64,000 bases of DNA from Candidatus Kuenenia stuttgartensis (GCA_945872305.1 CAMCAC010000001.1:2970-66969); one strand, 5' to 3'. Positions 2,183-54,769 are shown, numbered from the stretch's first letter. Translations and numbers: made by a program. The notes: generated by a model not told the origin, from the letters alone.

Positions 2183-2749
2183 ATGGACGCGTCCGCCCAG
2201 GATGCGGTGGTCGCCCGGATCCGGGCCGGCGAGCGGGAGGCCTACCGGCTCCTGATCGAGGCCCTGGAGCCCCAGGTCCGGGCCTTTGTCGCCGCCCGGG
2301 CGTCGTCCCGGGACCAGGTGGATGAGGTGGTCCAGGCCGCCTTCGTCGCCGCATTCCTGAAACTCGACCACTACCAGCCCGGCGCGTCCTTCGCGGCCTG
2401 GCTGAACGGATTCGCCCGCAATCTGCTGCGGGAATCCCATGCCGCCCGGGCCCGCCAATCGGGTCAGGCCGGCATCGATGAACTCGAAGGGCTGCTTGCC
2501 GCCACTGCCATCGACCACGAGGCCGATGATCTGGAGGTGCTGTCCGCCCACGCCCGGGCCTGTCTGGAGGGGTTGGCTCCCCATGCCCGGGACATTGCCG
2601 AGCGCCGCCTGATCCATGGTGAATCCCTTGAGCGGATCGCGGAACAGCATACGAAGACGGCCGCTGCCATCGCCACCATGCTGACCCGGATCAAGGCCGG
2701 GCTGCGTCGGTGCATCGAGCAGCGGGCGAAGGAGGCCCCCCATGGCTGA
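2183..2749 (+). CDS. ECF-type RNA polymerase sigma factor (sigma-70 regions 2 and 4)
   Basis: The product starts [42 protein letters not shown]... and has region-2 and region-4 style segments (…[15 protein letters not shown]…; C-terminal [32 protein letters not shown]). The start was chosen at an internal ATG; the 225-aa ORF has an improbable N-terminus. Confidence 0.75.
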
Positions 2750-3122
2750 GACCTGCACCCACCCGCTCGAGACATTTCTCGACGGCGGCGCCGTCGCCCG
2801 TCCGGCGGATCCCGCCGCCGTCCTCGCCGATCTGCGCTTTGATCTCGGCCTCCGCGCCGCCCTCGCCCCGGCCCGCACCGACGCCATCTGGGCCGCCTGC
2901 CTGGCCGCTGCCCCGGAGCGCCGCACCGGTGTGATCATCCCCTGGCGTCCCCTCGCGACCCTTGCCGCCGCGGCCACCCTGATGGCCGGCGTCGGCACCT
3001 GGTCGGTGGCCGCGTGGAGTGATGGCGCCGCTGCCGAACCGTCCACCACCGTCGCCCATCGCCCCTCGGCCCCGGAGATCGTGGCGGTCGTCGCGGTGTC
3101 CGACGCGGTGGTCTTGCCGTAG
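2742..3122 (+). CDS. Membrane anti-sigma factor (single TM helix), translationally coupled to the ECF sigma
   Basis: Overlaps the sigma stop by 8 nt (ATGGCTGA). The 126-aa product has a cytoplasmic N-domain and one hydrophobic helix (LATLAAAATLMAGVGTWSVAAW). The sigma/anti-sigma pair is called from context. Confidence 0.55.
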   Translation: MAETCTHPLETFLDGGAVARPADPAAVLADLRFDLGLRAALAPARTDAIWAACLAAAPERRTGVIIPWRPLATLAAAATLMAGVGTWSVAAWSDGAAAEPSTTVAHRPSAPEIVAVVAVSDAVVLP

Positions 3123-3256
3123 TCTCCGCCATCCCTGGTGACAGCCGTCTGGCGGGCTGGTGCAGAGCGCCGACCCGCTCAGCGCATGCATGACGATCTC
3201 GGCCACCTCTCGCCGGCATGGGAAGCCTCGGCACCCCTGCCGCGCGTTCGTGGCGC

Positions 3257-3275
3257 CGCTTCACGCCATCTTCAC
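3257..3275 (+). promoter_or_regulatory. PHO-box-like site: two 8-mers CGCTTCAC / ATCTTCAC with 11-bp period, 36 bp upstream of the GH3 operon start
   Basis: Same phased TTCAC motif as found upstream of pstS, phnC, phnF, btaA, the phytase-like gene and the phnM paralog in this window. Confidence 0.4.
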
Positions 3276-3310
3276 TTTCCCCCGCCCTGCCCGGTTCGCA
3301 TGGTGCGGGC

Positions 3311-4816
3311 ATGGTGCGTGGACTGCTCGGCTATGGCGTCGCCCGGCTCCTGGCCCTGGATGACCGACGCCCGGTGACGCCGGCTGGGATCAGGGCGGCC
3401 CAGGACCGGGAGCTGGCACGGATCCTGGCCCGGCTGGGGCCGACCGCGGTGGGCCGGCGTTTCGGGCTGGGAGACCTCCGGGATGCGGCAGCGTTCCGGG
3501 ACCGGGTCGCGCCGACGGGGTATGGCGATTACGCTGGAGAACTGGCCCGCAGCGCCCAGGGCGAGCCGGATGTGCTGTTCCCTGGCCGGCCCCGGGCCCT
3601 GGCCCAGACCAGCGGCACGACGAGTTCCGGCGCCGCCGGCGAGCGCTTCATCCCCCAGGGAGCCGACCTCCTCGACCACCACGCCCGGGGCGGCCGGGCG
3701 GCTTTGGCGCGGCTCGCGGCGGCGGTGGGGCCGCGGTTGTTCGCCGGGCGGATGCTCATGCTCGGCGGCTCCACCAGCCTGACGGCGAATGCCCACGGGG
3801 TGCCGGTGGGGGATCTGTCGGGCATCGTGGTCGACCGCATCCCGTCCTGGCTCCAGGGCTTCTACGAGCCGGGCCGGGCCATCGCCCTGGAATCGGACTG
3901 GGAGCGCAAACTCGCGCGCATCGTCGAACGGCTCGCGCACCGGGATGTGCGGCTCGTCAGCGGCATCCCGAGCTGGATGCTGGTCCTGTTCGACCGCCTG
4001 TGCCGGGCCCGGGGGGTGGAGCGCCTGCGCGACGCCTGGCCGGACCTGGCGGGGTTGATCCACGGTGGCCACGCGGTGGCGCCGACCCTGCCGATGCTGC
4101 GGCACCACCTGGATCCCGCGACCCGCCTGGTCGAGGTCTATCCGGCGAGCGAGGGCTTCCTCGCGGTGGGCAGCCGGGCCTGGACCCCGGACGAGGACGG
4201 TCCGCCGCCCCTGGCCTGCCTGTGTGCGCATGGGATCTGGCTCGACTTCCTGCCCGAGGACGGCGGCCCCGCGGTGGGCGCCGACGGGCTCGAGGACGGT
4301 CGGCTGTACCGGATCCTGGTCACGACTCCCGGCGGACTGCTGCGCTACCAGATCGGTGATCTCGTGCGCGGCTGCGGGCCGGGGCTGCTCCGGGTCGCGG
4401 GCCGGGTGCGCTGCCGCATCTCGGTCTTCGGCGAGCATGTGGAAGGGGACCACCTGGACGCGGCCATCACCGCCGCCGGCCTCCGGGTCGCCCACTACCA
4501 CGTGGCTCCGGTGCTGCCCACGCCGGCGGAGCCCCGGGGCCGCCACGAGTGGTGGATCGAGAGCCCCGACCCCATCGATCCCGTCGCGGTGGCCGCGGCC
4601 ATCGACCGTCATCTCCGCGCGACGGTCCTCGACTACGACGCCCACCGGGCCGGCGACCAGCAGTTGCTGGCGCCGACGGTGGTGCCGGTGCCGCCGGGGA
4701 CCTTCGCCGCCGCCCTCGCCGCCCAGGGCAAGCTCGGTGGCCAGCACAAGGTGCCCCAGGCCTGGGCCGACCGCACCGTCGCCGACCGTCTCGCCGCCGC
4801 GGCCACCCTCCCATGA
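3311..4816 (+). CDS. GH3-family (auxin-responsive GH3-like) acyl-acid amido synthetase / adenylating enzyme
   Basis: Product MVRGLLGYGVARLLAL...AQTSGTTSSGAAGERFIP... carries the GH3 P-loop-like SGTTSG motif and GH3-like downstream segments (YRYQIGDLVR). Start set at the internal ATG 3311, after the Pho box. Confidence 0.7.
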   Translation: MVRGLLGYGVARLLALDDRRPVTPAGIRAAQDRELARILARLGPTAVGRRFGLGDLRDAAAFRDRVAPTGYGDYAGELARSAQGEPDVLFPGRPRALAQTSGTTSSGAAGERFIPQGADLLDHHARGGRAALARLAAAVGPRLFAGRMLMLGGSTSLTANAHGVPVGDLSGIVVDRIPSWLQGFYEPGRAIALESDWERKLARIVERLAHRDVRLVSGIPSWMLVLFDRLCRARGVERLRDAWPDLAGLIHGGHAVAPTLPMLRHHLDPATRLVEVYPASEGFLAVGSRAWTPDEDGPPPLACLCAHGIWLDFLPEDGGPAVGADGLEDGRLYRILVTTPGGLLRYQIGDLVRGCGPGLLRVAGRVRCRISVFGEHVEGDHLDAAITAAGLRVAHYHVAPVLPTPAEPRGRHEWWIESPDPIDPVAVAAAIDRHLRATVLDYDAHRAGDQQLLAPTVVPVPPGTFAAALAAQGKLGGQHKVPQAWADRTVADRLAAAATLP

Positions 4817-5796
4817 TCGATCTCCTCTTCTCCGCCCCGTCCGTCACCGAGGGCACAGCCGACCCCGTGGCGGCGCCGCCCTCCCCCCGGCCTCTGCTCA
4901 CCATCGACCGCGCCAAGGGGCGCGGCCCGCTCCGATTCCTGTGCGTGCCCGGCCTGGTTCCGGACGGCCCCGAGACGTTCCTCCGCCAGCGCAAACTGCT
5001 CGCCAAGTTCGGACCGGCGGATGTGGTGACCTATCCGCCGGACCGCTTCGATCTGGACCGCGCCCTGGCGGAGATGGAGGCGTATCTGCGCGAGGACCCC
5101 AAGGTCCGCACCGTCCTGGTCGGGGTCAGCGTCGGTGGCGGCCTGTGCCTGGAGCTGCTCCGCCGGGCCCGGGAGGCCAAGCGACCGCTGCCCCTGCACG
5201 GGGTGGTGCTGATCAGCCCGCTCACCTGCACCGCGGACCTGTCGCCGATCCTCAGCAAGCTGCTGGCTCCCATCCTGACCGAGATGGACAAGGCCGAGGC
5301 GGGTCGGCCCGAGGTGGCGCTGGAGCGCGGCCGGTCTTTCTTCAAGGGGCTTGCCAGCCGCTCCGCGGGCACCGCCCGGGCGCAGCAGGGCTGGCGCAAG
5401 GTGGCGAGCCTGTTCACACCCGCGGGCCTGGCGGAGCTGGTCGATGGCCGCATCCGCAAGCGCATCGAGGCGACCCTGGACCGCATCACCCCCGCCGGCG
5501 CGGTGCAGCGGGTCGAGGCGTTGCGCCGGCTGCCCGGACTGGGTGTCTCGCGCACGCCCTACGTGGAGGTTCCGACCCTGCTCCTGTGGGGCGCCAAGGA
5601 GCGTCACACCCTGGACATGGACGGCCCGGGCACCCGTATCCTCTGCCGGCCCGACCTGGCGGTGAAGGTGTTCCCCAAGGCCGAGGTCCACTGGATCTAC
5701 GACAAGGACGGCGAGGAGGTCCCGCACGCCTCGCTGCTCCGCCACGCCAAGGCGTTCAACCGCCCGCTCAAACGCTTCCTCAAGCGGATCGCATGA
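4813..5796 (+). CDS. Alpha/beta-fold hydrolase
   Basis: Start overlaps the GH3 stop (ATGA). The product MIDLLFSAPS...VLVGVSVGGGLCLELL has a GXSXG-type nucleophile elbow and the length and secondary-structure rhythm of alpha/beta hydrolases. Confidence 0.65.
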   Translation: MIDLLFSAPSVTEGTADPVAAPPSPRPLLTIDRAKGRGPLRFLCVPGLVPDGPETFLRQRKLLAKFGPADVVTYPPDRFDLDRALAEMEAYLREDPKVRTVLVGVSVGGGLCLELLRRAREAKRPLPLHGVVLISPLTCTADLSPILSKLLAPILTEMDKAEAGRPEVALERGRSFFKGLASRSAGTARAQQGWRKVASLFTPAGLAELVDGRIRKRIEATLDRITPAGAVQRVEALRRLPGLGVSRTPYVEVPTLLLWGAKERHTLDMDGPGTRILCRPDLAVKVFPKAEVHWIYDKDGEEVPHASLLRHAKAFNRPLKRFLKRIA

Positions 5797-6308
5797 TCCC
5801 GCGGTGCATCGCGGAGCAGGAGCGCTACCGCCACCGCCGCGCCGTGGTGGTCGAGGAACGCTGGGTCACCGTGGATGGCGAGGTGCTGCGCCCGGTGGTG
5901 CGCTTCCCGACCACCGTCGGCATCATCGCCTGTCCCGTTCCCGGCCGCATCCTGATGGTCCGCCAATGGCGCTATCCGGTGCGCCGCTTCACCGTCGAGA
6001 TCCCCGCCGGCACGGTGGAGCCGGGCGAGGATCCCCTGGCGGCGGCGGTGCGCGAGCTGCGCGAGGAAACCGGCTGGGGCGCGACGGCGGTGCACGAAGT
6101 CCTGCGCTACACCCCGGAGCACGGCACCAGCGACGAGACGGTGATCCTGGTCGAGGCCACCGGCTTGCACCTGGCCCCGCTGCCGCCGGATCCCGGCGAG
6201 CAGTGCGAGGTGCTGGACCTGCCGGTGGCGGAGGCCCGGGCCCAGGCCATCGCCGGCGGACCCGACGCCCGCACCCTGCTCGCCCTGGCCCGGCTCGGCG
6301 CCGGCTGA
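5793..6308 (+). CDS. NUDIX hydrolase
   Basis: Start overlaps the hydrolase stop (ATGA). Clear Nudix box GTVEPGEDPLAAAVRELREETGW (GX5EX7REUXEEXGU). Confidence 0.8.
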   Translation: MIPRCIAEQERYRHRRAVVVEERWVTVDGEVLRPVVRFPTTVGIIACPVPGRILMVRQWRYPVRRFTVEIPAGTVEPGEDPLAAAVRELREETGWGATAVHEVLRYTPEHGTSDETVILVEATGLHLAPLPPDPGEQCEVLDLPVAEARAQAIAGGPDARTLLALARLGAG

Positions 6309-6318
6309 TCGACACAGG

Positions 6319-6337
6319 GTCTTCATCGGGCCTTCAC
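6319..6337 (+). promoter_or_regulatory. PHO-box-like site (GTCTTCAT cgg GCCTTCAC) 21 bp upstream of the phnM paralog
   Basis: 11-bp phased TTCAY 8-mers; same motif family as the other Pho-type promoters here. Confidence 0.4.
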
Positions 6338-6357
6338 CGGCACGGGTACACGGGCGC

Positions 6358-7504
6358 CATGCTCCACGCCCCACCCACCACCAAGCCCCTCCGCATCACC
6401 GGCGCCCGCGCCCTGGTCGACGGCGGTTGGAGCGAGGAGCCGGTGGCGATCGAGGACGGCTGCATCACCGCAGATCGCGGTGGCTTCGCCGAGTGGGATG
6501 CCCGGGGCCTGCTCCTGCTGCCGGGCATCGTGGACATCCACGGCGATGCCTTCGAACGGGCGGTGCAGCCCCGGCCCCGGGTGGAGTTCCCGTTCGATCT
6601 TGCCCTTGGGGAATGCGATGGCTGGCTGCTCGCGGCGGGGGTGACCACCTACCTCATGTCGGTCACCGATTCGGTGGAGCCGGGGTTGCGCTCCCGCTCC
6701 ACCCTGCGCCGGCTGATGAGCGCCCTCGATGGCGCGGGCCGCCACCGTCTGCAGGCGGACTGGCACATCCACATCCGCCACGAGATGACCCTGGTCGACG
6801 GCCACGACGAACTCCTCGCGTGGATCCACGAGGGCCGCCCGGCGATGCTCTCGATCGCCGACCATCTCCCCCTGGATGCGGACGATGCCGAGGCGGGGCG
6901 TTACCACCGATCCGCGCTGCATCGCACCGGGATCGCCCCGGCGGAACTCGATGACCTGATCCGCACCGGCGTGGCGGACCGGGAGCATGGACGGGCCCAG
7001 GCGATGGAGCTGGCCGCCGCGGCCCGGGCCGCCGGCATTCCCCTGGCCAGCCACGACGACGACAGTCCCGCCCAGGCCGCCGCCAGCGCCGCCCGGGGCT
7101 GCACGGTGGCGGAGTTCCCCCTGGATGCGGCCACCGCCCGGTCCGCGCGCCGCCACGGCATGGGCGTGCTGGTCGGCGCCCCCAACCTGGTCCGCGGCCG
7201 ATCCCATATCGGCGCCCTGGGAGCCGCCGACGCGGTGCGCATGGGCCTCGCCGACGCCCTGTGTTCCGACTACCATTTCGCCAGCCTCTTCGCGGCACCG
7301 TCGGTCCTTGCCGAGCAGGAGATCCTCCCCCTCGAACAGGCCTGGGAGCTGGTCAGCGCAGGTCCCGCCCGCCTCGCCGGCTTGCGGGACCGCGGTGCCA
7401 TCCGGACGGGATTGCGCGCCGACCTGCTCCTCGTCGAACCCGGCCCCCAGCTCCGGCTGCGCGCCGTGATCGTCGCCGGCCGGGTGGTGGCATCGTTCGC
7501 GTGA
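6358..7504 (+). CDS. phnM: PhnM-family amidohydrolase (alpha-D-ribose-1-methylphosphonate 5-triphosphate diphosphatase paralog), outside the C-P lyase operon
   Basis: Product MLHAPPTTKPLRITGARALVDGGW...LPGIVDIHGDAFER...ASHDDDSPAQ...EFP...GAPNLVRGRSHIG... shares all hallmark PhnM blocks with the second copy at 9077-10222. Confidence 0.8.
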
Positions 7505-7559
7505 GGGTTCCGCTCGGCATGTCGGGCAAGATCAGGTGATGGATGGGAGCAGCGGTGAT

Positions 7560-7705
7560 CAGGGACCGCCGAGCATGGCTCGGCCCTGGTTTCATGAAGC
7601 CCTGCTCGCCTTGGTTTCTGTGGGGTCGGCGGGGTCGATGCCGAGCGATGCTCGGCGGTCCCTGAGAGCGGGGTAGACAGGGACCGCCGAGCATCGCTCG
7701 GCACC
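7560..7705. repeat. REP-like palindromic repeat cluster: three copies of CAGGGACCGCCGAGCATSGCTCGG, two forming a ~24-bp inverted repeat hairpin
   Basis: Copies at 7560-7588 and 7678-7705 are direct; the copy at 7641-7664 is inverted. They lie in the convergent gap between phnM (+) and the hexapeptide transferase (-). Confidence 0.5.
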
Positions 7706-7713
7706 GGTCAGAC

Positions 7714-8367
7714 CTACGGTGCGTAGCGCTCCGCGAACTCGGCCATGGGCAGGGCGAGGTCCGCGGCCCGGGCGACCAGGACGGCGCGATCCCAGTCCCA
7801 CCAGCGGGTGGCGAGCATGCGCTCCGCCAGGGGCGGATCCGCCCGCCACTTGATGAAGCGGGCCGGCACGCCGCCGACGATGGCGTAGGGCGGTACGTCC
7901 TTGGTCACCACCGCGCCGGCGGCGAGCACCGCGCCGGTGCCGACGGTGACGCCGGGCAGGACGATGACCCCGTGGCCGATCCACACATCGTGGCCGATCA
8001 CCACCCGGTCGGCGCCGCGGTCGGCGAAGAACGTCGCGTCATCCTCCCCGGCGAAGCCGTACTGGGCCCGGCGGTAGGTGGCGTGGTGCTGGGTCGCCCG
8101 CTCCATCGGATGGTTGCCGGGACCGATCCGGGTCGCGGCGGCGATGGAGCAGAAGCGGCCGACCACGGTGTTCGCCAGGTCCGCGCCGTGGGCGGCGTAA
8201 CTGTAGTCGCCCAGGTCGCAGTCCGCCATCCGGCAGCCGTCCATCAACTCAGTCCACGTCCCGAGCCGGCTGCGCACCACGCGGACACCGGTGCGCAGGC
8301 AGGGCAGCTCCGACAGGGCATCATCGCGCCAACGCCCGGTGCCGGCGACGGTGTCGATCAACTCCAT
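7714..8367 (-). CDS. Phosphonate-metabolism-associated transferase, hexapeptide-repeat (LbH) family
   Basis: 217-aa product MELIDTVAGTGRW... has left-handed beta-helix hexapeptide repeats (VIGHDVWIGHGVIVLPGVTVGTGAVLAAGAVV). It is the last gene of the phn operon, overlapping the phnP start by 10 nt. A hexapeptide transferase is a recurrent accessory gene of C-P lyase operons. Confidence 0.7.
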   Translation of the reverse strand: MELIDTVAGTGRWRDDALSELPCLRTGVRVVRSRLGTWTELMDGCRMADCDLGDYSYAAHGADLANTVVGRFCSIAAATRIGPGNHPMERATQHHATYRRAQYGFAGEDDATFFADRGADRVVIGHDVWIGHGVIVLPGVTVGTGAVLAAGAVVTKDVPPYAIVGGVPARFIKWRADPPLAERMLATRWWDWDRAVLVARAADLALPMAEFAERYAP

Positions 8368-9086
8368 GCGATCCGCTCCCCGTCGTGGCCCACCGCGCAC
8401 CACGGGGGCAGCACGGTCCCCTCGTCGAGATGGCATTGCAGGTGGTGGCCGATGTGGACCAGCCGCCCGGCGGTGCAGCGGATCGCCGTCAGGGCCGCCA
8501 CCGCCCGGGGCAGGTCGTTGTGGCGTTTCTCCTCGGCCCGGGGGTCGTCGGGCGGGAACGAGCAGTCGATGGCCCCGAGATCCGGGCGCAGGGCGGCGAG
8601 GAACGCGGTGGTCCGCTCCGGCAGGCCGAGGGTGTCGGTGAGCCAGGCGATCCGCCGGGGGCCCTCCACCAGCCAACCGACCGCGGGGATGGTGTGGTGC
8701 AGGGGCACCGGCGTGGCGGTCCAGCCGTTCGCCAGGGCTATGGACACGAAGGGTTCCACCACCCGGATGCGCAGGCCGGGCACCCGGTCCTCGACCGCGA
8801 TCCGGCGGTCCGGATCCTCGGGCCCCCACACCGGCCGGCCGGCGGCGACGGCGGCGATCTCCGCCACATGGTCCGGGTGGTAGTGGGTCAGGAGCAGCGC
8901 GTCGGGCCGGTCGGGGCCCACCAGCCCCGCGTCCACCTGGACACTGAACCGGTGGTCCGCGATCCACGCGCAGGTGTGGCGGCGGGACGGCCCGGTGCCG
9001 GTCCGGGCCCGGTCGCAGGCGCCGCAGATGCAGCCGGCGGCGGGGATGCCGCTGGTGGTGCCGGTGCCGAGCAGGGTCAGACGCAT
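8358..9086 (-). CDS. phnP: PhnP, phosphonate metabolism phosphodiesterase (metallo-beta-lactamase fold)
   Basis: Product MRLTLLGTGTTSGIPAAGCICGACDRAR...LLLTHYHPDHV... has the PhnP N-terminal Cys cluster and the HxHxDH motif. Overlaps the phnM start by 10 nt. Confidence 0.8.
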   Translation of the reverse strand: MRLTLLGTGTTSGIPAAGCICGACDRARTGTGPSRRHTCAWIADHRFSVQVDAGLVGPDRPDALLLTHYHPDHVAEIAAVAAGRPVWGPEDPDRRIAVEDRVPGLRIRVVEPFVSIALANGWTATPVPLHHTIPAVGWLVEGPRRIAWLTDTLGLPERTTAFLAALRPDLGAIDCSFPPDDPRAEEKRHNDLPRAVAALTAIRCTAGRLVHIGHHLQCHLDEGTVLPPWCAVGHDGERIAWS

Positions 9087-10222
9087 GCGGGCCGGTCCAC
9101 GGTGTCGAGGACCTTGCGCCCAGCGACCAGCACCGCCTGGACCGTGGGCCGTTGGGCATCCACGAGCAACAGATCCGCCCGTTGGCCGAGGGCGATCGCG
9201 CCACGGTCGCGCAGCCCCGCCGCCCGGGCCGGCATCAAGCTCACCAGCCGCACCGCATCCGGCAGACTGAGGGGGGACACCTCCGGGAGCATGAGCGCCG
9301 CCGCCAGGAGCGAGGGCGGATGGTAGTCCGCGCACAGCCCGGTGCAGGCGCCGGCGAGGATCACATCCAGGGCCCGGACATTGCCACCGCTGCTCCGGCC
9401 GCGCACCACGTTCGGTGCCCCGAACAGGGTGACCATGCCCGCGTCCACCGCCGCCTGGGCGGCGGCGAGACCGATCGGGAACTCGCTGATCGTCACCCCC
9501 AGCCGCTGCATGGCGGCGACCTTTTCCGGGGTGTCGTCGTCGTGGCTGGCCAGGGCCACGCCGTGCTCCCGGGCCAGGGCGGCGAGGCGGTCCATGCGCG
9601 CGGCGCCCTCGTCCCGGGCGGCGACCTTGGATTCGCCGATGCGGATCGATTCCGCTTCGCTGGTGTGGTAGGTGCGGGTCATGTACGCGACATAGGCGCC
9701 CATGTCCGCGAACTGGCCCTGACCCGGGCTGTGGTCCATGAACGACACGAGTTCGGTCTGGCCGTCGGCGATCAGCTCCGCCACCGGGGCTTCGCCGCCG
9801 GCGTCGGTGATCTCGTAGCGGGCGTGGACCCGGTGCTCGACCAGGCCGGAGAACCCGCGCACCGTGCGCACCACCTCGGCGGCGACCCGGCAGTCCCGCA
9901 CGCCCCATTCGCCGCCGGCGAAGGAGATCGCGTGGTACACGGTGGTGATGCCGGCGTGCAGGTTGCGGCGGTCGGAATTCGCCAGGGCGAAGCCGTGGTC
10001 GAAGGCGACCCGGGGCCGCGGCTCAACCTCTTTTTCAAGGGCGTCGCAATGCAGATCGACCAGCCCGGGCAGGCAGCGGGCGCCGCCACCGTCGAGCTCC
10101 TGGTCGATGTCCGGGGCCACCGGGCAGATGGAGCGGATGATGCCGTCCTCGATCAGCAGGGAGCCATCATGGACAACCGCATCCGGCAGGACGAGGTCCA
10201 CATGGGAGATCAGGCGGCGCAT
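9077..10222 (-). CDS. phnM: PhnM, RPnTP diphosphatase (amidohydrolase superfamily)
   Basis: Product MRRLISHVDLVLPDAVVHDGSLLIEDG...LPGLVDLHCDALEKE...ASHDDDTPEKV...SEFP...GAPNVVRGRSSGGN sits in operon position between phnL and phnP. Confidence 0.85.
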   Translation of the reverse strand: MRRLISHVDLVLPDAVVHDGSLLIEDGIIRSICPVAPDIDQELDGGGARCLPGLVDLHCDALEKEVEPRPRVAFDHGFALANSDRRNLHAGITTVYHAISFAGGEWGVRDCRVAAEVVRTVRGFSGLVEHRVHARYEITDAGGEAPVAELIADGQTELVSFMDHSPGQGQFADMGAYVAYMTRTYHTSEAESIRIGESKVAARDEGAARMDRLAALAREHGVALASHDDDTPEKVAAMQRLGVTISEFPIGLAAAQAAVDAGMVTLFGAPNVVRGRSSGGNVRALDVILAGACTGLCADYHPPSLLAAALMLPEVSPLSLPDAVRLVSLMPARAAGLRDRGAIALGQRADLLLVDAQRPTVQAVLVAGRKVLDTVDRPACV

Positions 10223-10914
10223 GGGGCCTCCGGGCGGCGCAGGGTGACGACCTCGTCCGCCAGGGCGGCGACCAGGTCCGGATCATGGAAGATGGCGAGG
10301 ATGCCCACGCCGTCGGCCTTGGCGGCGCGGATCGCCGCCACCACCAGCTCGGCGCTGCGCCGGTCCAGGCTCGCGGTGGGTTCGTCGAGCATGAGCAGCC
10401 GCGGCCGGTGGACGAGTCCGCGGGCGAGGTTCACCCGCTGCCGCTCGCCGCCGCTGAAGGTCGCCGGTGGGATCCCCCACAGCCGCTCCGGCAGGTCCAG
10501 TTCCCGCAGACGTTCCTCCGCCGCCGCCCGGGCCGCGGCGCGGCCGGCGCCGATAGCGACCAGGGGCTCCGCCACCACATCCACCGCCGGCTGGCGCGGC
10601 AGGCAGTGCAGGAACTGGGTCACATAGGCGATGTCCCGGGCCCGGATCCGCAGGGCGGTGGGCTCGTCGCAGGCCGCCAGATCCATCGCCCCGTCCGCGG
10701 CGGCGAAGCGGATCGTCCCACGCTGCGGCAGATAGGTCCGGTACACGCACTTGAGCACCGAACTCTTGCCGGCCCCGCTCGGTCCGACCAGGGCGGTCAA
10801 CCGCCCCGCCCGCACCGTGAACGACGCCCCAGCCACGCTCGGGATCATGGTCCCGGTGTGGTGGAGGGTGAAGGATTTGTGCAGGTCGGTGACGGTGAGG
10901 ATGGGATCGTTCAT
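10210..10914 (-). CDS. phnL: PhnL, C-P lyase ATP-binding component
   Basis: Product MNDPILTVTDLHKSF...GPSGAGKSSVLK...FSGGERQRVNLARG...LDEPTASLD is an ABC-type ATPase. It overlaps the phnK start by 4 nt and the phnM start. Confidence 0.85.
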   Translation of the reverse strand: MNDPILTVTDLHKSFTLHHTGTMIPSVAGASFTVRAGRLTALVGPSGAGKSSVLKCVYRTYLPQRGTIRFAAADGAMDLAACDEPTALRIRARDIAYVTQFLHCLPRQPAVDVVAEPLVAIGAGRAAARAAAEERLRELDLPERLWGIPPATFSGGERQRVNLARGLVHRPRLLMLDEPTASLDRRSAELVVAAIRAAKADGVGILAIFHDPDLVAALADEVVTLRRPEAPCAA

Positions 10915-11747
10915 AGGGCGCTCATCACCAGCTGCTGGGTGTACGCATGCTGGGGATCCTCGAGGATCTGGTCGGTCAGGCCGCTCTCGACGACCCGGCC
11001 GTGGCGCAGGACCAGGGTGCGGCCGGCGAGCAGGCGGACCACGCCGAGGTCGTGGGTGACCACGATCATCGCCACCCCGAGCTCCCGCTGGATCTCGAGG
11101 ATCAGGTCGAGGATCCGGGCCTGGACCGAGAGGTCGAGGCCGGTGGTGACCTCGTCGAGGAAGAGCAGTTCCGGCTGGGGCGCCAGGGCGCGGGCGATCT
11201 GCAGCCGCTGCTGCATGCCGCCGCTGAAGCGGCCGGGCTGGTCGTCGATGCGACCCGCGGGGATCTCGGTCCGGGTGAGCAGCGCCAGGGCCCGTTCGCG
11301 GATCGCGGCGAAGCGCCGCTCGCCGGAGCACAGCAGCCGCTCGGCGATGTTCCCGCCGGCGCTGACCCGGTAGTTGAGCCCCAGGTGGGGGTTCTGGTGG
11401 ACCATGCCGAAGCGGCCGTCGCGCAGCCGGCGGGCCACCGCTTCGTCCACCGTCGCCAGATCGTGGAGGGCGCCGTCCCGGTCGCGGAACACCGCGCTGC
11501 CGGCGGTGGGCCGGTCGTCCAGGTGGAGCAGCTTCACCACCGAGCTCTTGCCGCTGCCGCTCTCGCCCATCAGACCGAGGATCTCCCCCGGCCACAGGTC
11601 GAACGACACCCCGGACACCGCCACCACCGATCCGCACACCGGGCAGATGTTGGTGCCATGGTGGTCGCCAGTCAGTTCCCGGCAGCGCGGGCAGCCGGGG
11701 CCGTGGATGCGGGTGAGGTCGCGCACGCGCAGGACGGGATCGCTCAT
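10911..11747 (-). CDS. phnK: PhnK, C-P lyase ATP-binding component
   Basis: Product MSDPVLRVRDLTRIHGPGCPRCRELTGDHHGTNICPVCGSVVAVSGVSFDLWPGEILGLMGESGSGKSS... has the PhnK-specific CxxC…CxxC insertion before the Walker A motif, plus an ABC signature. Confidence 0.9.
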   Translation of the reverse strand: MSDPVLRVRDLTRIHGPGCPRCRELTGDHHGTNICPVCGSVVAVSGVSFDLWPGEILGLMGESGSGKSSVVKLLHLDDRPTAGSAVFRDRDGALHDLATVDEAVARRLRDGRFGMVHQNPHLGLNYRVSAGGNIAERLLCSGERRFAAIRERALALLTRTEIPAGRIDDQPGRFSGGMQQRLQIARALAPQPELLFLDEVTTGLDLSVQARILDLILEIQRELGVAMIVVTHDLGVVRLLAGRTLVLRHGRVVESGLTDQILEDPQHAYTQQLVMSAL

Positions 11748-12598
11748 GCCATCGCCTCCATCCGCTCGTCGCAGCGGTCCTGGTCGTTGCACTGCCAGCG
11801 CCGGGTGCCGTCGGGCAGGGGGATCTCGTCGAGAAAGGTGTCGCCGGCGCCGCAGCGGGCGCAGCGGTGGCGGCCGCCGTCCGCGGCGGCGAAGCGCTCG
11901 ACCTCGAACGGCACGTCGTCGAAGGCCAGGGGCACCACGTCGGTGTGGGGCGGCACCGCGTACAGCTTCTTCTCGCGTCCGGCGGCGAACAGGTGGGGCA
12001 CCGGGCTGCGGTGCAGCTTGGGCAGGTCCCAGCGGGGGATCGGCGAGGGATCGATGATGTAGCGGCCGTGGACCCGGGCCGGGTAGCGGTTCGACAGGGC
12101 GACCTCGCGGTAGCGCACGACGTCTTCATAGAGCTTCACCCAGAGTCGGGCGTAGTCCCCGTGGGCGTGCATGCGCCGGCGCTCCGCCTCGCTCGGCTCG
12201 ACGATCTGAAGGGGGTCCGGGTAGGGGACCTGGTAGACCATGACCTGGCCCGGGACCAGGGACCGTTCCGGCGTGCGGTGGCGGGTCTGGATCAGGGTCG
12301 CTTCGGCAGTCCGGGTGGTGGTCGCCATCCCCGGGCAGGCGTTGCCGATGAACCTGCGCAGGGCCACCGCATTCACCGAATCGTCGGCACCCTGGTCGAT
12401 GACCTTCAATTGGTCGCCGGGCACCGCGATGGCGAGGGTCACCTGCATGCCACCGGTACCGAAGCCCCGGGCCACCGGCATTTCCCGGCTCGCGTAGGGC
12501 ACCTGGTAGCCGGGGATCGCCAGGGCCTTGAGCAGCCCGCGGCGGATCTCGCGCACGGCGACCGCATCGAGGAATCCGAAATCGTCGTCGTTGGTCAT
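11744..12598 (-). CDS. phnJ: PhnJ, alpha-D-ribose-1-methylphosphonate-5-phosphate C-P lyase (radical SAM, 4-Cys)
   Basis: Product MTNDDDFGFLDAVAVREIRRGLLKALAIPGYQVPYASREMP... has the C-terminal CARCGAGDTFLDEIPLPDGTRRWQCNDQDRC four-cysteine motif. Overlaps phnK by 4 nt. Confidence 0.9.
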   Translation of the reverse strand: MTNDDDFGFLDAVAVREIRRGLLKALAIPGYQVPYASREMPVARGFGTGGMQVTLAIAVPGDQLKVIDQGADDSVNAVALRRFIGNACPGMATTTRTAEATLIQTRHRTPERSLVPGQVMVYQVPYPDPLQIVEPSEAERRRMHAHGDYARLWVKLYEDVVRYREVALSNRYPARVHGRYIIDPSPIPRWDLPKLHRSPVPHLFAAGREKKLYAVPPHTDVVPLAFDDVPFEVERFAAADGGRHRCARCGAGDTFLDEIPLPDGTRRWQCNDQDRCDERMEAMA

Positions 12599-12600
12599 GG

Positions 12601-12824
12601 CATCCCTTCGAGGCTTACAGGAGGGCGGGAGGACACGGAGGGCCGCGGAGGAGTGGAGGCAGGATCCCTCCGCGGCCCTCCGCGGTCTCCCGCCCTCCTG
12701 TGGCCGGCCGCAGGCCATCGAGGCGAGGGCTGACGTTCATCATGCGTTGCTGTCATGATGCAGAGGAGGCGGGAATGGATTCGAGGCTTACAGGAGGGCG
12801 GGAGGCCGCAGGCCATCGCATGCC
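12601..12824. repeat. Complex of nested GC-rich palindromes (REP/MITE-like) occupying a 226-bp gap between phnI and phnJ
   Basis: CTTACAGGAGGGCGGGAGG (12613-12632) is matched by its inverse TCTCCCGCCCTCCTGT (12685-12700). They enclose the inner palindrome GGAGGGCCGCGGAGG…CCTCCGCGGCCCTCC. A second copy of CGAGGCTTACAGGAGGGCGGGAGG lies at 12782-12805. GGCCGCAGGCCATCG occurs twice, and there is a TCATCATG/CATGATGA hairpin at 12738-12761. Confidence 0.55.
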
Positions 12825-13919
12825 TCATGGCGCGGCCTGCATCTTCGCCCGGCTGGTGCGCAGATTTTCCAGGTCGCTCTGGAAGGTCACATAGTGGGGC
12901 AACTTGTAGTGGCTGCAGAAGCCCATGGCTTCGATGCCGTCGATGTGGCAGACCACGAACTCCGCATCCTCTGCGGGGTGGCGGGCGCCGCGCTGCTCGC
13001 CGCTGACCATGGCGCGGTCGCACATGGCCATGGCGATGGCCTTGGTCTCCTGGTGGCCGAAGCAGGCGCCGTAGCCGAGGGACAGCCGCGGCGGCCCGTC
13101 GCTGCCCTGGTGGGCCTCGTGGGTGGCGATGATCTCGCATTCGGTGATCAGCACCTCGCCGGCCTCGACGGGCTCGCCGGTGAGGGGATGGGGCAGCCGC
13201 ACCGGCAGCCAGCCGACCCGCAGTTCCGCCACCGTCGGGTGCAGGTAGCCGTAGCCGCGCATGGTCGAATAGGCGATGGCGAGCAGCCCGCCGGTCTCGC
13301 CCCGGGCCATGTGGGCCAGCCGGGCCGGGCGCGGGATCGGGAAGGCCAGGGTCGAGCGGGTGATGTCCACCGCCTCGGTCCCGGCGGGCTGGTCGTCGAG
13401 CAGGCCCTCGGCCCGGAGCAGGTCGAGGACCTTCGGGAAGGTCGCGGGCACCGCGTCGTCGGGCAGGTCCTTGAACCAGTCCTTCACCACCGACTTGAAG
13501 GCCTCGGGGGACTCATCGATCAGCTCGCGGCGGAACAACCGTTGGAGGTAGTCGGTGGACGGCCCGAGCACCTGGCCGCCGGGGATCTCCTTGAACGCCG
13601 ACGAGATCCGACGCACCACCCGGAGATCATCGCCCCGGTGGGCCGCGGTCTCGCCGAGCCGCGGCAGGTGGCTGCGGTGGGCGCGGAGGATGAACGAGGC
13701 TTCGAGCGGATCGCCGAAGGCCTGTTTCACCGCCAGGGCCGCGAGCTGGGGATCGTGCAGGCCGCCCTCGGCCATGACCCGGTCCACGAGCAGCCGGAGC
13801 TGGTCGCGGATCTGGTCGACCCCAAGCGGATCCGCGGCGCCGGCGGTGCGCAGCAGCTCCAGGGTGCGGATGGCCTCGGTGATGGCGGCTTCGCCGCCGC
13901 GGACCGCGACATAGCCCAT
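12825..13919 (-). CDS. phnI: PhnI, ribose 1-methylphosphonate 5-triphosphate synthase (C-P lyase core)
   Basis: 364-aa product MGYVAVRGGEAAITEAIRTLELLRTAGA...GYGACFGHQETKAIAMAMCDRAM...; gene order G-H-I-J. Confidence 0.9.
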   Translation of the reverse strand: MGYVAVRGGEAAITEAIRTLELLRTAGAADPLGVDQIRDQLRLLVDRVMAEGGLHDPQLAALAVKQAFGDPLEASFILRAHRSHLPRLGETAAHRGDDLRVVRRISSAFKEIPGGQVLGPSTDYLQRLFRRELIDESPEAFKSVVKDWFKDLPDDAVPATFPKVLDLLRAEGLLDDQPAGTEAVDITRSTLAFPIPRPARLAHMARGETGGLLAIAYSTMRGYGYLHPTVAELRVGWLPVRLPHPLTGEPVEAGEVLITECEIIATHEAHQGSDGPPRLSLGYGACFGHQETKAIAMAMCDRAMVSGEQRGARHPAEDAEFVVCHIDGIEAMGFCSHYKLPHYVTFQSDLENLRTSRAKMQAAP

Positions 13920-13920
13920 G

Positions 13921-14466
13921 TCAGGCCTCCACCGCGGTGGTCCGCGGGATGCAGGTGACGCGCCCGGCGTCCACCAGGATGTAATCGACGCCGAGGGGAT
14001 GGGCGCACCAGCCGGCGCGGGCGGTGATCCAGGCCGGATCCAGGCCCCGGGGCGCCATCGTCGCGCTTCCATCGATGCCGGGCCCGCGCAAGTGCAGCGG
14101 CGCGCCGCCGTCGAGATAGTCCACCGCCAGCACCACCGTCGCCCCGCGCTCCGGCTGGAGCAGGGTGCCGCGGTCCGGCGCCAGGTCCCCGGGGACCCGG
14201 GCGCCCCGTGCGAGGATGAAGCGCGCCACCCCGGCGTCGGCCCGGCCGGCGCCGAGCCGCGAGGCGTCCAGCTCCGACAGCAGGCCGTCGCGGTCGTGCA
14301 GGGTGGTGTGGGCATCCACCAGGCAGGCGAGCACCGCGAGCAGGGCGCTGCCGCCGGCCCAGGGGGACAGATCATGCCGCGAGCCGGGCCGGGCCATGGC
14401 GTCGAGCAGGTGGCGGAAGACCTCGCGCTGGCCGGCGGCCCGCCACGGGTGGTCGAGGGTGATCAT
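13921..14466 (-). CDS. phnH: PhnH, C-P lyase core complex subunit
   Basis: 181-aa product MITLDHPWRAAGQREVFRHLLDAMARPG... (PhnH starts with …FR.L…AM..PG). Overlaps phnG by 4 nt. Confidence 0.8.
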   Translation of the reverse strand: MITLDHPWRAAGQREVFRHLLDAMARPGSRHDLSPWAGGSALLAVLACLVDAHTTLHDRDGLLSELDASRLGAGRADAGVARFILARGARVPGDLAPDRGTLLQPERGATVVLAVDYLDGGAPLHLRGPGIDGSATMAPRGLDPAWITARAGWCAHPLGVDYILVDAGRVTCIPRTTAVEA

Positions 14467-14909
14467 CCGGCGTCCTCCTGGCCCAGTTCGGCGAACGACA
14501 CCCGGGTCCGCTCGCGGATGGCGGCACGCATCCGGGCCAGGTCCCGGCGGGCGGCCCGGCCGCGCTCGCGCAGGGCCTCCACCTCGTGGGCGCCGGGCCA
14601 GCCGGCCCGGGCCACCGCATCGCACACCGCCAGGGCCCCGGCCCACTCGGCGTCGCCGTGGAGCAGCACCGCGCCGCCGCGGCAGGCGCCCAGGACCGGA
14701 TCGCGCAGCTCCACCGCCGCCTGGGCCGCGGGGACCTCGCCGACGAAGAAGCGGTCGTCCCGCACCGGCTCCGCCAGGCGGAGCAGCCACAGTCCCTCCG
14801 CCGGCACGGTGACCGGTTCGACCCGGCGCCCCGCGGCGACGAGTGCCGCCACGGCCAGGGCCTCGGCCCGGGGGGCGGCGGCGAGATCGGGATTCAGCTC
14901 GGGATCCAT
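14463..14909 (-). CDS. phnG: PhnG, C-P lyase core complex subunit
   Basis: 148-aa product MDPELNPDLAAAPRAEALAVAALV... sits between phnF and phnH with coupled overlaps. Confidence 0.75.
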   Translation of the reverse strand: MDPELNPDLAAAPRAEALAVAALVAAGRRVEPVTVPAEGLWLLRLAEPVRDDRFFVGEVPAAQAAVELRDPVLGACRGGAVLLHGDAEWAGALAVCDAVARAGWPGAHEVEALRERGRAARRDLARMRAAIRERTRVSFAELGQEDAG

Positions 14910-15595
14910 CACGACTCCAGGTGCAGGTCGAGGCGGTCGGCGCGGGCCCGGGTCACCGCCCATTCCCACGGGCGGCCCTGGGCATCGCCGCTCAGGGTGC
15001 GGATGCGCAGCACCGGCAGCCGCGGCGCGAGGCGCAGGCTGCGGGCATCGTCGGGCCCGGCGGGCACCGCCGAGATCCAGGTCGACAGCCGGCGCAGGCG
15101 CAGGCCGTAGCCGTGCAGGCAGTCGTGGACCGAGCCGCCCTCGAAACGCTGGTCCAGATCCGGCAGCGGCTCCGCCGGCAGGTGGTGGACGATGGTGCTG
15201 ATCGGCGTCGAGCCGGTCAGGCGCAGGGTGGCGATGCGCCACACCGGCGCCCCCGCCGCCAGCCGCAGCCGCCGGGCGGTGTCCGCATCCGCGGCGGTGC
15301 GCTGCACGCCGAGCAGCCGGCTCGCCGGGGCCAGCCCGAGATCCCGCAGGTTGAGGGTGAAGCGGGTGTGATCGCCGATGCGGTACGGGATCGGCGGCGG
15401 CGCCACCACGGTGCCCACGCCCCGTCGGCGTTCGACCAGTCCTTCGGCGGCGAGGCGGTCCACCGCCTGGCGCAGCCGGTGGCGGGTCACCCCGAGCCGT
15501 TCCGCCCACTCCGCCTCGGCCGGCAGTCGCTCGCCCGGGGCCAGGGGCGTGAGCTCCCGGCGCATGGCCTCCACCAGTTCGACATCCTCGGGCAT
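14909..15595 (-). CDS. phnF: PhnF, GntR/HutC-family transcriptional regulator of phosphonate utilisation
   Basis: 228-aa product MPEDVELVEAMRRELTPLAPGERLPAEAEWAERLGVTRHRLRQAVDRLAAEGLVERRRGVGTVV has the GntR winged HTH plus a UTRA-like C-domain. Start chosen at the internal ATG with the proper N-terminus. Confidence 0.75.
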   Translation of the reverse strand: MPEDVELVEAMRRELTPLAPGERLPAEAEWAERLGVTRHRLRQAVDRLAAEGLVERRRGVGTVVAPPPIPYRIGDHTRFTLNLRDLGLAPASRLLGVQRTAADADTARRLRLAAGAPVWRIATLRLTGSTPISTIVHHLPAEPLPDLDQRFEGGSVHDCLHGYGLRLRRLSTWISAVPAGPDDARSLRLAPRLPVLRIRTLSGDAQGRPWEWAVTRARADRLDLHLES

Positions 15596-15630
15596 GCCGT
15601 CGAGGCTAGCGGGACCGATGCGGATCCGTC

Positions 15631-15670
15631 GTGAATTCCCAGCCAGTGGACGATGAAGATGGCGTGAAGC
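15631..15670 (-). promoter_or_regulatory. PHO-box-like site in the divergent phnF / MFS promoter region
   Basis: Read on the minus strand: GGCTTCAC gcc ATCTTCAT cgt ccactggc tgg GAATTCAC. Three of four 8-mers match the TTCAY motif in 11-bp phase, about 36 bp from the phnF start. Confidence 0.4.
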
Positions 15671-15707: not shown

Positions 15708-16877
15708 ATGGCCATGGATCGCAGCACGGTGGCGCTCGCCCTGCGCCTGGGCACCGGCCAGACGATCCTGTGGGGATCCACCTACTACCTGCCGGCGATC
15801 CTGGCGGCGCCCATCGCCGCCTCCTGCGGGGTGGAACCGCTGCATGTGCACCTGGCGTTCTCCGGTGCGCTGGTGGTCTCCGCGGCGGTCGGACCGGCGG
15901 CGGGGGCGTGGATCGACCGCTCCGGCGGCGGGCCGGCCCTGGTCGCGGCGAGCGGGCTCGCGGCCCTGGGGCTCGCCCTCCTTGCCGGCGCCGACGGCCC
16001 GGTGCGGCTGACCGTGGCCTGGGTGGTCCTCGGGCTCGCCATGGGCAGCGGCCTGTACGATGCGGCCTTCGCCGCCGCGGTGAGGCTGCGCGGACCCGGG
16101 GCCCGCGCAGTGATCACCGGCATCACCCTGGTGGCGGGCTTCGCCAGCACCGTGGCTTGGCCGCTGACCGCGTGGTGGGCCGCCATGTGGGACTGGTCTG
16201 GGGCGTGCTGGGCGTGGATCGCCGTCCATCTGCTGGTGGCGGTGCCGTTGCATCTCGGACTGCCGAAGCCCGGTCCCCGGGTCGTCGTGGATCCCGACGC
16301 TCCGACGGATCCGCTGCCGCCGCCGCCCCGGGCCGCCGCGGCCCTGCTCGCCACCGTATTCGCCGCCACCTGGTTCATCACCACCGCCATGGCGGCGCAC
16401 CTGCCGGCGCTGCTCGCCGCCGGCGGCGTGGCCCCGGCCCTGGCGGTGGCCTGCGCCGCCCTGGTCGGTCCGAGCCAGGTGGCGGCGCGGATCGGCGAGG
16501 CCGCCCTGCTCCGCCGCTGCCATCCGCTCACCGCCGCTCGCTGGGCCGCCTGGGGGCATCCCGCGGGCGCGGCGGCCTTCGCCGTCGCCGGCTGGCCGGC
16601 GGCGTTCGCGATCCTGCACGGCGCCGGCAATGGCATCATGACCATCGCCAAGGGCACCCTGCCCCTGGCGGTTTTTGGTCCCGCCGGTTACGGCGCCCGC
16701 CAGGGCTGGCTGATGGTCCCCGCCCGCCTCGCCCAGGCCGCCGCCCCGGTCGCCTTCGCCGCCGCCCTGGCCGCCTGGGGCCTCGGTGCCCTGTGGCTCA
16801 CCGCCGCGTCCGCGGCGGTGTCGGTGGTGGCGCTGGCGGTGGTGGCGCGGGGGATCCGGGAGCGGTCGGTGCCGTGA
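15708..16877 (+). CDS. MFS transporter (12-TM), divergent from phnF
   Basis: Highly hydrophobic 390-aa product with two six-helix halves and a central loop (PKPGPRVVVDPDAPTDPL). Specificity unknown. Confidence 0.65.
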   Translation: MAMDRSTVALALRLGTGQTILWGSTYYLPAILAAPIAASCGVEPLHVHLAFSGALVVSAAVGPAAGAWIDRSGGGPALVAASGLAALGLALLAGADGPVRLTVAWVVLGLAMGSGLYDAAFAAAVRLRGPGARAVITGITLVAGFASTVAWPLTAWWAAMWDWSGACWAWIAVHLLVAVPLHLGLPKPGPRVVVDPDAPTDPLPPPPRAAAALLATVFAATWFITTAMAAHLPALLAAGGVAPALAVACAALVGPSQVAARIGEAALLRRCHPLTAARWAAWGHPAGAAAFAVAGWPAAFAILHGAGNGIMTIAKGTLPLAVFGPAGYGARQGWLMVPARLAQAAAPVAFAAALAAWGLGALWLTAASAAVSVVALAVVARGIRERSVP

Positions 16878-32045: not shown

Positions 32046-32046
32046 C

Positions 32047-43907: not shown

Positions 43908-43955
43908 GACGGATCGGCGTCGGGCATGCCGCCCGCCCCAGATCCGGAGGACGCC

Positions 43956-44471: not shown

Positions 44472-44654
44472 TTCCACATCCGGCCGCTGGACCCGGTTCC
44501 GGTCACCGGCCCTCCTCGGATCCGGGACAGGGTCCCAGGCCATAGGCGGCGCGCATGTCCGGCTCGACGGGCCGGCATGCGCGACAAGGCTGGACCCCGG
44601 CACACTTGCCGGGGTCCGGCGTGTCCGTACATGCCCCATCCAACGGAGTCACTC

Positions 44655-54768: not shown

Positions 54769-54769
54769 G

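Follow-up and report, generated by a model that had tools for sequence, protein, structure and literature searches.

We have examined a 64,000-nucleotide stretch of DNA from Candidatus Kuenenia stuttgartensis (GCA_945872305.1 CAMCAC010000001.1:2970-66969), referred to here as the window, with particular attention to positions 2183 to 7504, where a gene for an extracytoplasmic function (ECF) sigma factor and a short open reading frame (ORF) are followed by four closely packed genes that encode a GH3-family enzyme, an alpha/beta hydrolase, a NUDIX hydrolase and a paralog of the phosphonate enzyme PhnM (here called PhnM2). It is probable that these four genes constitute a cluster under phosphate (Pho) control that has been put together from three independent parts, i.e., an aminolipid module similar to OlsH and OlsI of ornithine-lipid synthesis, the NUDIX gene, and an accessory PhnM2 of the adjacent carbon-phosphorus (C-P) lyase, or phn, operon. 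The four genes are a patchwork of parts that have partners of their own, and the single four-enzyme pathway proposed in an earlier interpretation made from the DNA alone (the sequence-only reading) is not supported. Three points are of broader interest: an OlsH/OlsI-like aminolipid system, apparently Pho-controlled, in which the partner enzyme is a different one, a PHO-box consensus from a planctomycete, and a sharply defined PhnM2 clade.

Raw ORF lists were unreliable for the window, which is ~72% G+C, and reading frames were set by plots of GC content at codon positions (GC3) and by reading of the gene junctions, with Pfam and NCBIfam used to assign the predicted proteins to families. The identities originally proposed for all four genes proved correct (Table 1), as did their tight packing with two ATGA overlaps. 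For PhnM2, the PHO box that had been ascribed to it is present and the gap that precedes it measures 50 bp, not 49 bp. The GH3 start at 3311 is preferred over one at 3218, with a 501-aa homolog matching at 91% identity and full coverage, and the PHO box that falls between the two candidate starts likewise favors 3311. Scanning for terminators and promoters within 3311-7504 gave results at chance level and no convincing terminator-like site, the gap between NUDIX and PhnM2 included, so that transcription begun at the GH3 PHO box may run on into PhnM2, itself equipped with a box of its own.

Only one relative, with proteins 91% identical, has all four genes in this order, along with pnp-rpsO and the sigma pair; the order is absent from relatives at 59-71% (GH3), 51-54% (PhnM2) and 43-52% (NUDIX) identity. 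The GH3 and hydrolase genes are adjacent and overlapping in three contigs (L001, L008 and L009, with 71%, 70% and 59% GH3 identity, respectively) that place the pair in three unrelated contexts and carry neither NUDIX nor PhnM beside it, and the overlap amounts to 4-8 bp across the conserved pairs. In L001, GH3 comes after ABC-transporter genes. In LBMAG53 (L002, 57% GH3 identity) GH3 stands alone and a hydrolase homolog, LBMAG53_36990, lies elsewhere in the genome. A metagenome scan with a PhnM2-clade alignment yielded 80 PhnM2-type loci that were kept for study, and homologs of GH3, the hydrolase or NUDIX occur in none of them. These comparisons speak against one four-enzyme module; the sequence-only reading had itself named a lack of conservation of the neighborhood among relatives as grounds for giving the module up, and conservation does essentially end with the 91% relative.

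The known PHO boxes of PhoB and PhoP regulons are 11-bp direct repeats, as exemplified by the GTTCACC units of Streptomyces. The window was scanned for the pattern CTTCAYN5CTTCAY with at most one mismatch, which gave 14 matches as compared to 0.16 expected, and shuffled sequences that served as a control never gave more than one. Thirteen of the 14 sites are intergenic and lie 5-45 nt 5' of genes. As is the case for known PHO boxes, the window sites consist of direct repeats, two or three in number and phased at 11 bp, with a TTCAY core, and they stand upstream of pstS-like, phn, phosphatase-like and lipid-remodeling genes; they differ in that their consensus, (C/A/G)TTCA(C/T), is derived here in a planctomycete and in being unusually near to start codons. 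Because of the direct-repeat form and the kinds of genes that lie behind the motif, we infer that it serves as a PhoB operator, by analogy with the known regulons. The phosphate-starvation control that had been suggested from PHO boxes is thus well founded at the level of motif enrichment, with PhoB binding itself as the inferred step. From the sites, which lie almost always ahead of Pho-type genes, it therefore follows that the window is a Pho-regulon island that supplies a candidate PHO-box consensus for the Planctomycetota, a phylum for which we know of no such consensus defined before; as such, it is clean and testable. Among the relatives, a PHO-box-like site also precedes GH3 in L009, the 59% relative, and the PhnM2 relatives in L003 and L005 likewise have PHO-box-like repeats upstream. 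In L005 (51% PhnM2 identity; 3153-3234 and 3279-4959), four overlapping repeats separate a divergent gene for a GT4 glycosyltransferase from a 113-aa ORF that stands ahead of PhnM2, and after these come arsenic-resistance-like genes and a major facilitator superfamily (MFS) gene whose product is 59% identical to that of the window MFS gene. A GCTTGCCGG-containing stretch is shared upstream of GH3 in L001 (2800-2894), L008 (1125-1216) and L002 (7896-8000), and may be a regulatory site of another kind.

The sequence-only reading knew of no described pathway with these four enzymes together, a view that is not supported: a GH3 enzyme plus an alpha/beta hydrolase is how the ornithine-lipid pathway of OlsH and OlsI is built (PMC12493201). 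OlsH of Singulisphaera acidiphila, described in 2025, is a GH3-like ATP-dependent N-acyl-ornithine synthetase, which together with the alpha/beta hydrolase OlsI, an O-acyltransferase, makes up the third pathway to ornithine lipids; the genes (Sinac_1599, Sinac_1601) are found in the order olsI-olsG-olsH, and OlsH takes free fatty acids and is inactive in living E. coli, which apparently lacks them (PMC12493201). We found the S. acidiphila locus (L020) by scanning genomes with the OlsH motif-1 peptide. With S. acidiphila OlsH the window GH3 shares 35% identity over 484 aa (E 3e-65), which places it within the thresholds for OlsH homologs used in a 2026 review (>=30% identity, >=70% coverage), and its sole NCBIfam match is to the OlsH model NF052613 (261.7 bits against a cut-off of 620, hidden Markov model positions 30-504 of 524), on which true OlsH scores 991. 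Along with this full-length homology, the nucleotide-binding motifs are kept: TSGTTSSGAAGER (with a TSGTT core), VYPASE and GLLRYQIGD correspond to TSGTTQGATK, TYPCSE and GMWSHLIGD of OlsH, the first motif being longer in the window protein and its terminal Lys not obvious. GH3 is accordingly predicted from these similarities to be an ATP-dependent synthetase of N-acyl amino acids, i.e., of a lyso-aminolipid. The parallel extends to the pairing of a gene for a GH3-family amido synthetase with one for a serine enzyme of the alpha/beta fold in a planctomycete, and a phosphorus-free lipid would suit the Pho context of the window.

The window nevertheless departs from S. acidiphila in several respects. 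The order is GH3 followed by the hydrolase with an overlap, the OlsG methyltransferase is missing, the partner hydrolase is not OlsI, and PHO boxes are present; neither OlsI nor OlsG was found anywhere in the window. Conversely, among 63 OlsH loci, OlsI was found in 53 and OlsG in 60, and a hydrolase of the window type in none. The window hydrolase belongs to a small family, with 55 relatives at E <=0.001 among 1.84 billion representative sequences, and conserves Ser106 (in GxSxG), Glu263 and His305 (in a His-Ala-Ser motif). Its AlphaFold2 model (pLDDT 87.9) shows a canonical alpha/beta-hydrolase fold with a helical cap, so that it has the fold and the serine nucleophile that characterize an OlsI-type enzyme, and a profile of the family gave only weak matches in the PDB, centered round the nucleophile elbow. 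It is predicted to be the O-acyltransferase or acyl-esterase partner of GH3, and the pair is like OlsH/OlsI in architecture, with a second component that is non-orthologous.

Several observations weigh against the three-part interpretation, most of them against its lipid component. The GH3 protein and its clade mates score 262-295 bits on NF052613, far under the cut-off, and because of this they form a subfamily separate from OlsH; the head group may be something other than ornithine, and the product something other than a membrane lipid. Identification of the hydrolase as OlsI was considered and rejected, as the OlsI model NF052614, which gives 469.9 bits for the S. acidiphila protein, matches neither the window hydrolase nor its orthologs in L001, L008 and L009, the BLASTP comparison with OlsI is not significant (E 0.036), and the hhalign probability of 90.8% at 20% identity reflects the general alpha/beta fold; a role for it as an acyltransferase would be by analogy. 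No PHO box was found 5' of the GH3 genes in L001, L008 or L002. Lastly, the ATGA overlap that couples NUDIX translationally to the hydrolase finds no explanation in an assembly of independent parts, and with no terminator-like site between NUDIX and PhnM2 all four genes may be co-transcribed and have a functional link that is specific to this lineage.

There is a more far-reaching version of the aminolipid interpretation, which we regard as possible and put forward tentatively. It holds that the GH3 clade, widespread in uncultured Planctomycetota, and its private hydrolase family of ~55 members would make a phosphate-starvation-induced aminolipid that departs from ornithine lipid either in its head group or in second-step chemistry, by a fourth route with a non-OlsI partner, and, jointly with this, that the PhnM2 clade would have a step or substrate range distinct from that of canonical PhnM.

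A different role for the hydrolase, as an esterase, thioesterase or lipase that frees (3-hydroxy) fatty acids from acyl-acyl carrier protein (acyl-ACP) or phospholipids for use by GH3, would make the end product an N-acyl amino acid, with a role as lyso-lipid, surfactant or signal, in place of an acyloxyacyl lipid. The dependence of OlsH on free fatty acids would be met in this way, the hydrolase is unrelated to OlsI at the family level, and its structural neighbors are generic and for the most part esterases, haloperoxidases, monoacylglycerol lipases, the acyl-ACP ester esterase BioH and a type II thioesterase. However, structural neighbors do not separate hydrolases from acyltransferases in the alpha/beta-hydrolase fold, since RhlA, PhaC and homoserine O-acetyltransferase, all acyltransferases, are matched as well, and the OlsH/OlsI precedent couples the GH3 enzyme with an O-acyltransferase; on balance, we consider an esterase unlikely.

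PhnM-family enzymes cleave pyrophosphate (PPi) from a 5-triphosphoribosyl compound. PhnM2 scores 409.5 bits on NF011987, a model of a PhnM subfamily (cut-off 253), and 309.2 bits on the TIGR02318 equivalog, under its cut-off of 390.55. Like E. coli PhnM, which is included in an alignment of 13 proteins, it is a member of the amidohydrolase superfamily and keeps the invariant HxD, H/R/E, DH, SHDD, EFP, PN..RG.S and DY elements (among them H61, D63, H138, E142, D168-H169, S231-H232-D233-D234, E252-F253-P254, P275-N276, R279, S282 and D304-Y305), residues that would be the metal ligands; no solved structure matched PhnM2 at E <=0.001, and the PDB has none of PhnM. That PhnM2 might be a generic amidohydrolase, an objection the sequence-only reading had raised to itself, is rejected on these grounds, and the protein is a true member of the PhnM family. 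In a neighbor-joining tree of 33 sequences, canonical PhnM proteins (M1) and PhnM2-type proteins (M2) form reciprocally monophyletic clades, with the window PhnM2 grouping with a second copy from Pseudanabaena and the window PhnM1 with E. coli PhnM; at least 14 loci from diverse sources have one copy of each, and NF011987 corresponds to the M2 clade. The clades are told apart by a loop after the conserved Asp-His, DH[ST]PG[QE], which all 16 M1-type proteins have and none of the 86 M2-type proteins has, and PhnM2 carries DHLPLDADD where canonical PhnM has DHSPGQ.

The genomic setting of the M2 clade is for the most part that of phosphonate breakdown. Another phn gene is present in 59 of the 80 PhnM2-type loci (34 of the 43 that are at least 6 kb long), canonical PhnM in 13, and a TIGR03308 hexapeptide transferase in 39, usually directly upstream of the PhnM2-type gene, a position that suggests that the two proteins work together. 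Pseudanabaena sp. PCC 6802 (L014:8771-11209) has canonical phnM (378 aa) and an M2-clade gene (402 aa) in tandem in its phn operon; a 180-aa ORF with no family match follows the latter. The relatives at 51-54% identity either converge on the end of a phnF...M-P-hexapeptide operon, the layout of the window being the same as that of the 54% relative, or stand beside a GNAT acetyltransferase gene and phnCDE near a phn operon. In the window, PhnM2 converges on the phn operon at a distance of 210 bp from its last gene, and thus differs from the usual M2 setting in that it lies on the opposite strand behind the candidate lipid genes and not behind a hexapeptide transferase. A "second phnM-like metal-dependent hydrolase" has been noted in marine C-P lyase clusters (PMC3840354), at the end of which it sits much as PhnM2 does, and an extra phnM in Nodularia (PMC3610870). 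PhnM2 is therefore an already-known accessory of C-P lyase clusters from an old accessory clade, and not, as had been proposed, a paralog recruited to a different context. A stand-in function for the missing PhnN was considered and rejected, as PhnN homologs co-occur with PhnM2 in six loci.

From its sequence, PhnM2 is most likely a metal-dependent diphosphatase that acts on 5-triphosphoribosyl-1-phosphonates (RPnTP), with a substrate range altered by the different loop. We know of no report that an M2-clade enzyme hydrolyzes RPnTP to 5-phosphoribosyl-1-phosphonate (PRPn) and PPi. It could be argued that PhnM2 is a redundant isozyme of canonical PhnM that has the same substrate and is kept by drift, given that every residue invariant across the two groups is retained and that NCBI gives the M2 clade the same enzyme name. 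The residence together of two old, reciprocally monophyletic clades in those 14 or more loci argues for non-redundant roles, as does the clean division of the loop between them, and simple redundancy strikes us as doubtful. The second PhnM of many C-P lyase clusters thus emerges as a clade of its own, old and with an altered active-site loop, and as a well-defined piece of a well-studied pathway.

The NUDIX protein scores 63.1 bits on the Pfam NUDIX model (cut-off 21.1) and has an intact NUDIX box, GX5EX7REUXEEXGU, in the form GTVEPGEDPLAAAVRELREETGW. Its closest solved relatives in the PDB are ADP-ribose and ADP-sugar pyrophosphatases (E 1.8e-17), and we assign it provisionally to that type, as it shares with NudF-type enzymes (Thermus thermophilus Ndx4, Mycobacterium tuberculosis Rv1700 and human NUDT5) the intact box, the best PDB matches and, by our reading of the sequence, a downstream P-x-x-G-T-S-D-E segment that resembles SPGGTSE of NudF. 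It passes no NCBIfam equivalog cut-off, however, the best being NudE with 48.1 bits against 169, and unlike NudF its few orthologs (43-52% identity) each stand first, with an overlap, in a NUDIX-MlaE-MlaF-MlaD operon, on three independent contigs, a context that we have not seen described for NudF. One might speculate that the linkage to Mla genes points to envelope lipids.

The NUDIX and PhnM2 genes are neighbors with a PHO box between them, and the two could be viewed as a lineage-specific salvage pair for nucleotide or ribosyl-phosphate intermediates of phosphonate breakdown (e.g., ADP-ribose-like compounds for a NUDIX enzyme of the ADP-ribose pyrophosphatase type and triphosphoribosyl compounds for a PhnM-family enzyme) that works independently of the lipid genes. 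We find this improbable, as NUDIX is coupled translationally to the upstream hydrolase and not to PhnM2, occurs near none of the 80 PhnM2-type genes, and has orthologs that associate with MlaEFD lipid-transport genes.

The sigma factor has a Sigma70_r2 domain and scores 58.7 bits on TIGR02937 (sigma70-ECF; cut-off 42.9) and 104.9 bits on TIGR02989, under the cut-off of 124.55, so that the sigma half of the reported ECF sigma/anti-sigma pair stands. The 126-aa ORF that follows has no Pfam or NCBIfam match and a single hydrophobic segment (residues 71-89), and its designation as a membrane anti-sigma factor is a possible one. Of the relatives examined, the 91% one alone has the pair next to GH3 as the window does, and no ECF-type promoter motif was found for the operon. 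The sigma factor is thus adjacent to the cluster, and its membership in the cluster and the ECF input into the operon that the sequence-only reading envisaged are unsupported. The most comprehensive of the alternatives, that all four enzymes form one new pathway, with ECF sigma input, which in phosphate-starved cells processes an organophosphorus or acyl compound linked to a ribosyl group or a nucleotide, can draw on the tight packing, the overlaps, the terminator-free gap, the gene order kept in the 91% relative and the ribose-diphosphate-type substrates on which both NUDIX and PhnM enzymes act, but it is very improbable in view of the loss of that order in all more distant relatives examined, the 80 PhnM2-type loci devoid of the other three genes, the different conserved partners that each part has elsewhere, the PHO box that PhnM2 has to itself, and the unlinked sigma pair.

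According to the interpretation that we prefer, of a Pho-controlled cluster of three independent parts, a PhoB-type regulator would activate promoters with CTTCAY repeats when phosphate is limiting. Phosphonates would then be imported and cleaved by way of PhnCDE, C-P lyase, the accessory PhnM2, the GNAT protein and the hexapeptide transferase, phosphate would be scavenged by the PstS-like and choice-of-anchor-I proteins, and phospholipids would be exchanged for phosphorus-free lipids, namely a betaine lipid (through BtaAB-like enzymes) and an aminolipid (through GH3 and the hydrolase). In synthesis of the latter, GH3 would use ATP to adenylate a free, probably 3-hydroxy, fatty acid and couple it to an amino acid through the amino group of the latter to give an N-acyl amino acid (the lyso-aminolipid), on which the serine hydrolase might esterify a second fatty acid to give an acyloxyacyl lipid, or for which it might supply the free fatty acid. 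The product would be a phosphate-sparing membrane lipid without phosphorus, a purpose that would be shared by the btaA/btaB genes, which lie 25 kb off behind the same PHO box. NUDIX would have been inserted at the cluster in this lineage only, and PhnM2, with its own PHO box, would belong functionally with the convergent phn operon. If the aminolipid assignment is true, the GH3 lipid route would extend to a second clade of planctomycetes, with a different partner enzyme and direct control of the Pho type, which would help to explain the phosphorus economy of abundant freshwater planctomycetes.

Table 1. Positions of genes and sequence elements in the window (window coordinates unless a contig is named)
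Feature	Position	Strand	Remarks
ECF-type sigma factor gene	2183-2749	+	Alternative start upstream at 2072
126-aa ORF	2742-3122	+	8-bp overlap with sigma gene; coding backed by GC3 frame
PHO-box-like site, two 11-bp direct repeats CTTCACGCCAT CTTCACTTTCC	3259-3280	+	30 nt 5' of GH3 ATG
GH3 gene	3311-4816	+	Pfam GH3 N, M and C domains
Alpha/beta hydrolase gene	4813-5796	+	Abhydrolase_6; ATGA overlap with GH3
NUDIX hydrolase gene	5793-6308	+	Pfam NUDIX; ATGA overlap with hydrolase
PHO-box-like site CTTCATCGGGC CTTCACCGGCA	6321-6342	+	Inside NUDIX-PhnM2 gap, 16 nt 5' of PhnM2 ATG
PhnM2 (PhnM paralog) gene	6359-7504	+	NF011987; 50-bp gap after NUDIX
23-nt palindromic element GGGACCGCCGAGCATNGCTCGGC, three copies	7562-7702	+, -, +	Between PhnM2 and the phn operon, which converge
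Canonical C-P lyase operon, phnF-G-H-I-J-K-L-M-P and TIGR03308 hexapeptide transferase	7714-15604	-	Converges on PhnM2; PHO box 15653-15669
Hexapeptide-repeat transferase gene (TIGR03308)	7714-8319	-	Last gene of phn operon
Canonical phnM (PhnM1)	9077-10222	-	Inside phn operon
PHO-box-like match, 1 mismatch	10868-10884	-	In coding sequence, 5' end of phnL
PHO-box-like site	15653-15669		Precedes phnF and divergent MFS gene (15708-16877)
PhnO-like GNAT gene	17083-17535	-	Own PHO box
PHO-box-like site	17558		Precedes GNAT gene
PHO-box-like site	17633		Precedes phnCDE
PHO-box-like site	20562		Precedes Ser/Thr kinase-WD40 gene (20637-22853, +)
PHO-box-like site	24680		Precedes kinase-like/FGE-sulfatase-domain gene (22860-24635, -)
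PHO-box-like sites	24710 and 24721		Precede PstS-like binding protein gene
PHO-box-like sites (triple box)	27664 and 27675		Precede choice-of-anchor-I protein gene (27702-29417, +)
PHO-box-like site	30699		Precedes histidine kinase gene
PHO-box-like site	30763		Precedes DUF3419/methyltransferase pair, BtaA/BtaB betaine-lipid type
DUF3419 (BtaA-like) and methyltransferase (BtaB-like) genes	30804-32775	+	
NUDIX-MlaEFD operons	L010:5776-9593, L011:7001-10914, L012:7001-10954		Directly after pheT in two of the three

The complete canonical phnM that the sequence-only reading had placed in the neighboring operon is where it was said to be. This operon has neither phnN nor phnO; the PhnO-like GNAT gene stands apart from it. 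The palindromic element that separates the operon from PhnM2 gave three matches as compared to 0.02 expected and occurs nowhere else in the window, and its copies form very stable hairpins (RNA fold of 7500-7715, -123.9 kcal/mol, z = -5.66); the three copies are likely to act as a bidirectional terminator or to be hairpins similar to repetitive extragenic palindromes. The single PHO-box-like match that is not intergenic, in the 5' end of the phnL coding sequence, may be due to chance or may be an internal site.

Farther into the island, the DUF3419 protein (BtaA-like, 366 bits) is followed by an S-adenosylmethionine-dependent methyltransferase (BtaB-like), and the two genes are probably for synthesis of the betaine lipid diacylglyceryl-trimethylhomoserine (DGTS), a second route within the island to lipids free of phosphorus. 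The choice-of-anchor-I protein, which scores 398 bits for its domain, may be a secreted protein that scavenges phosphate, because a related contig encodes the domain in fusion with a PhoX phosphatase domain. The Ser/Thr kinase-WD40 and kinase-like/FGE-sulfatase genes are unusual members of a Pho regulon. Two further candidates for lipid remodeling, for which no PHO box was noted, are a gene for an Aas-like acyltransferase/AMP-binding fusion (52618-54783, -) and another whose product carries a lipid A biosynthesis acyltransferase domain (42915-44648, -).

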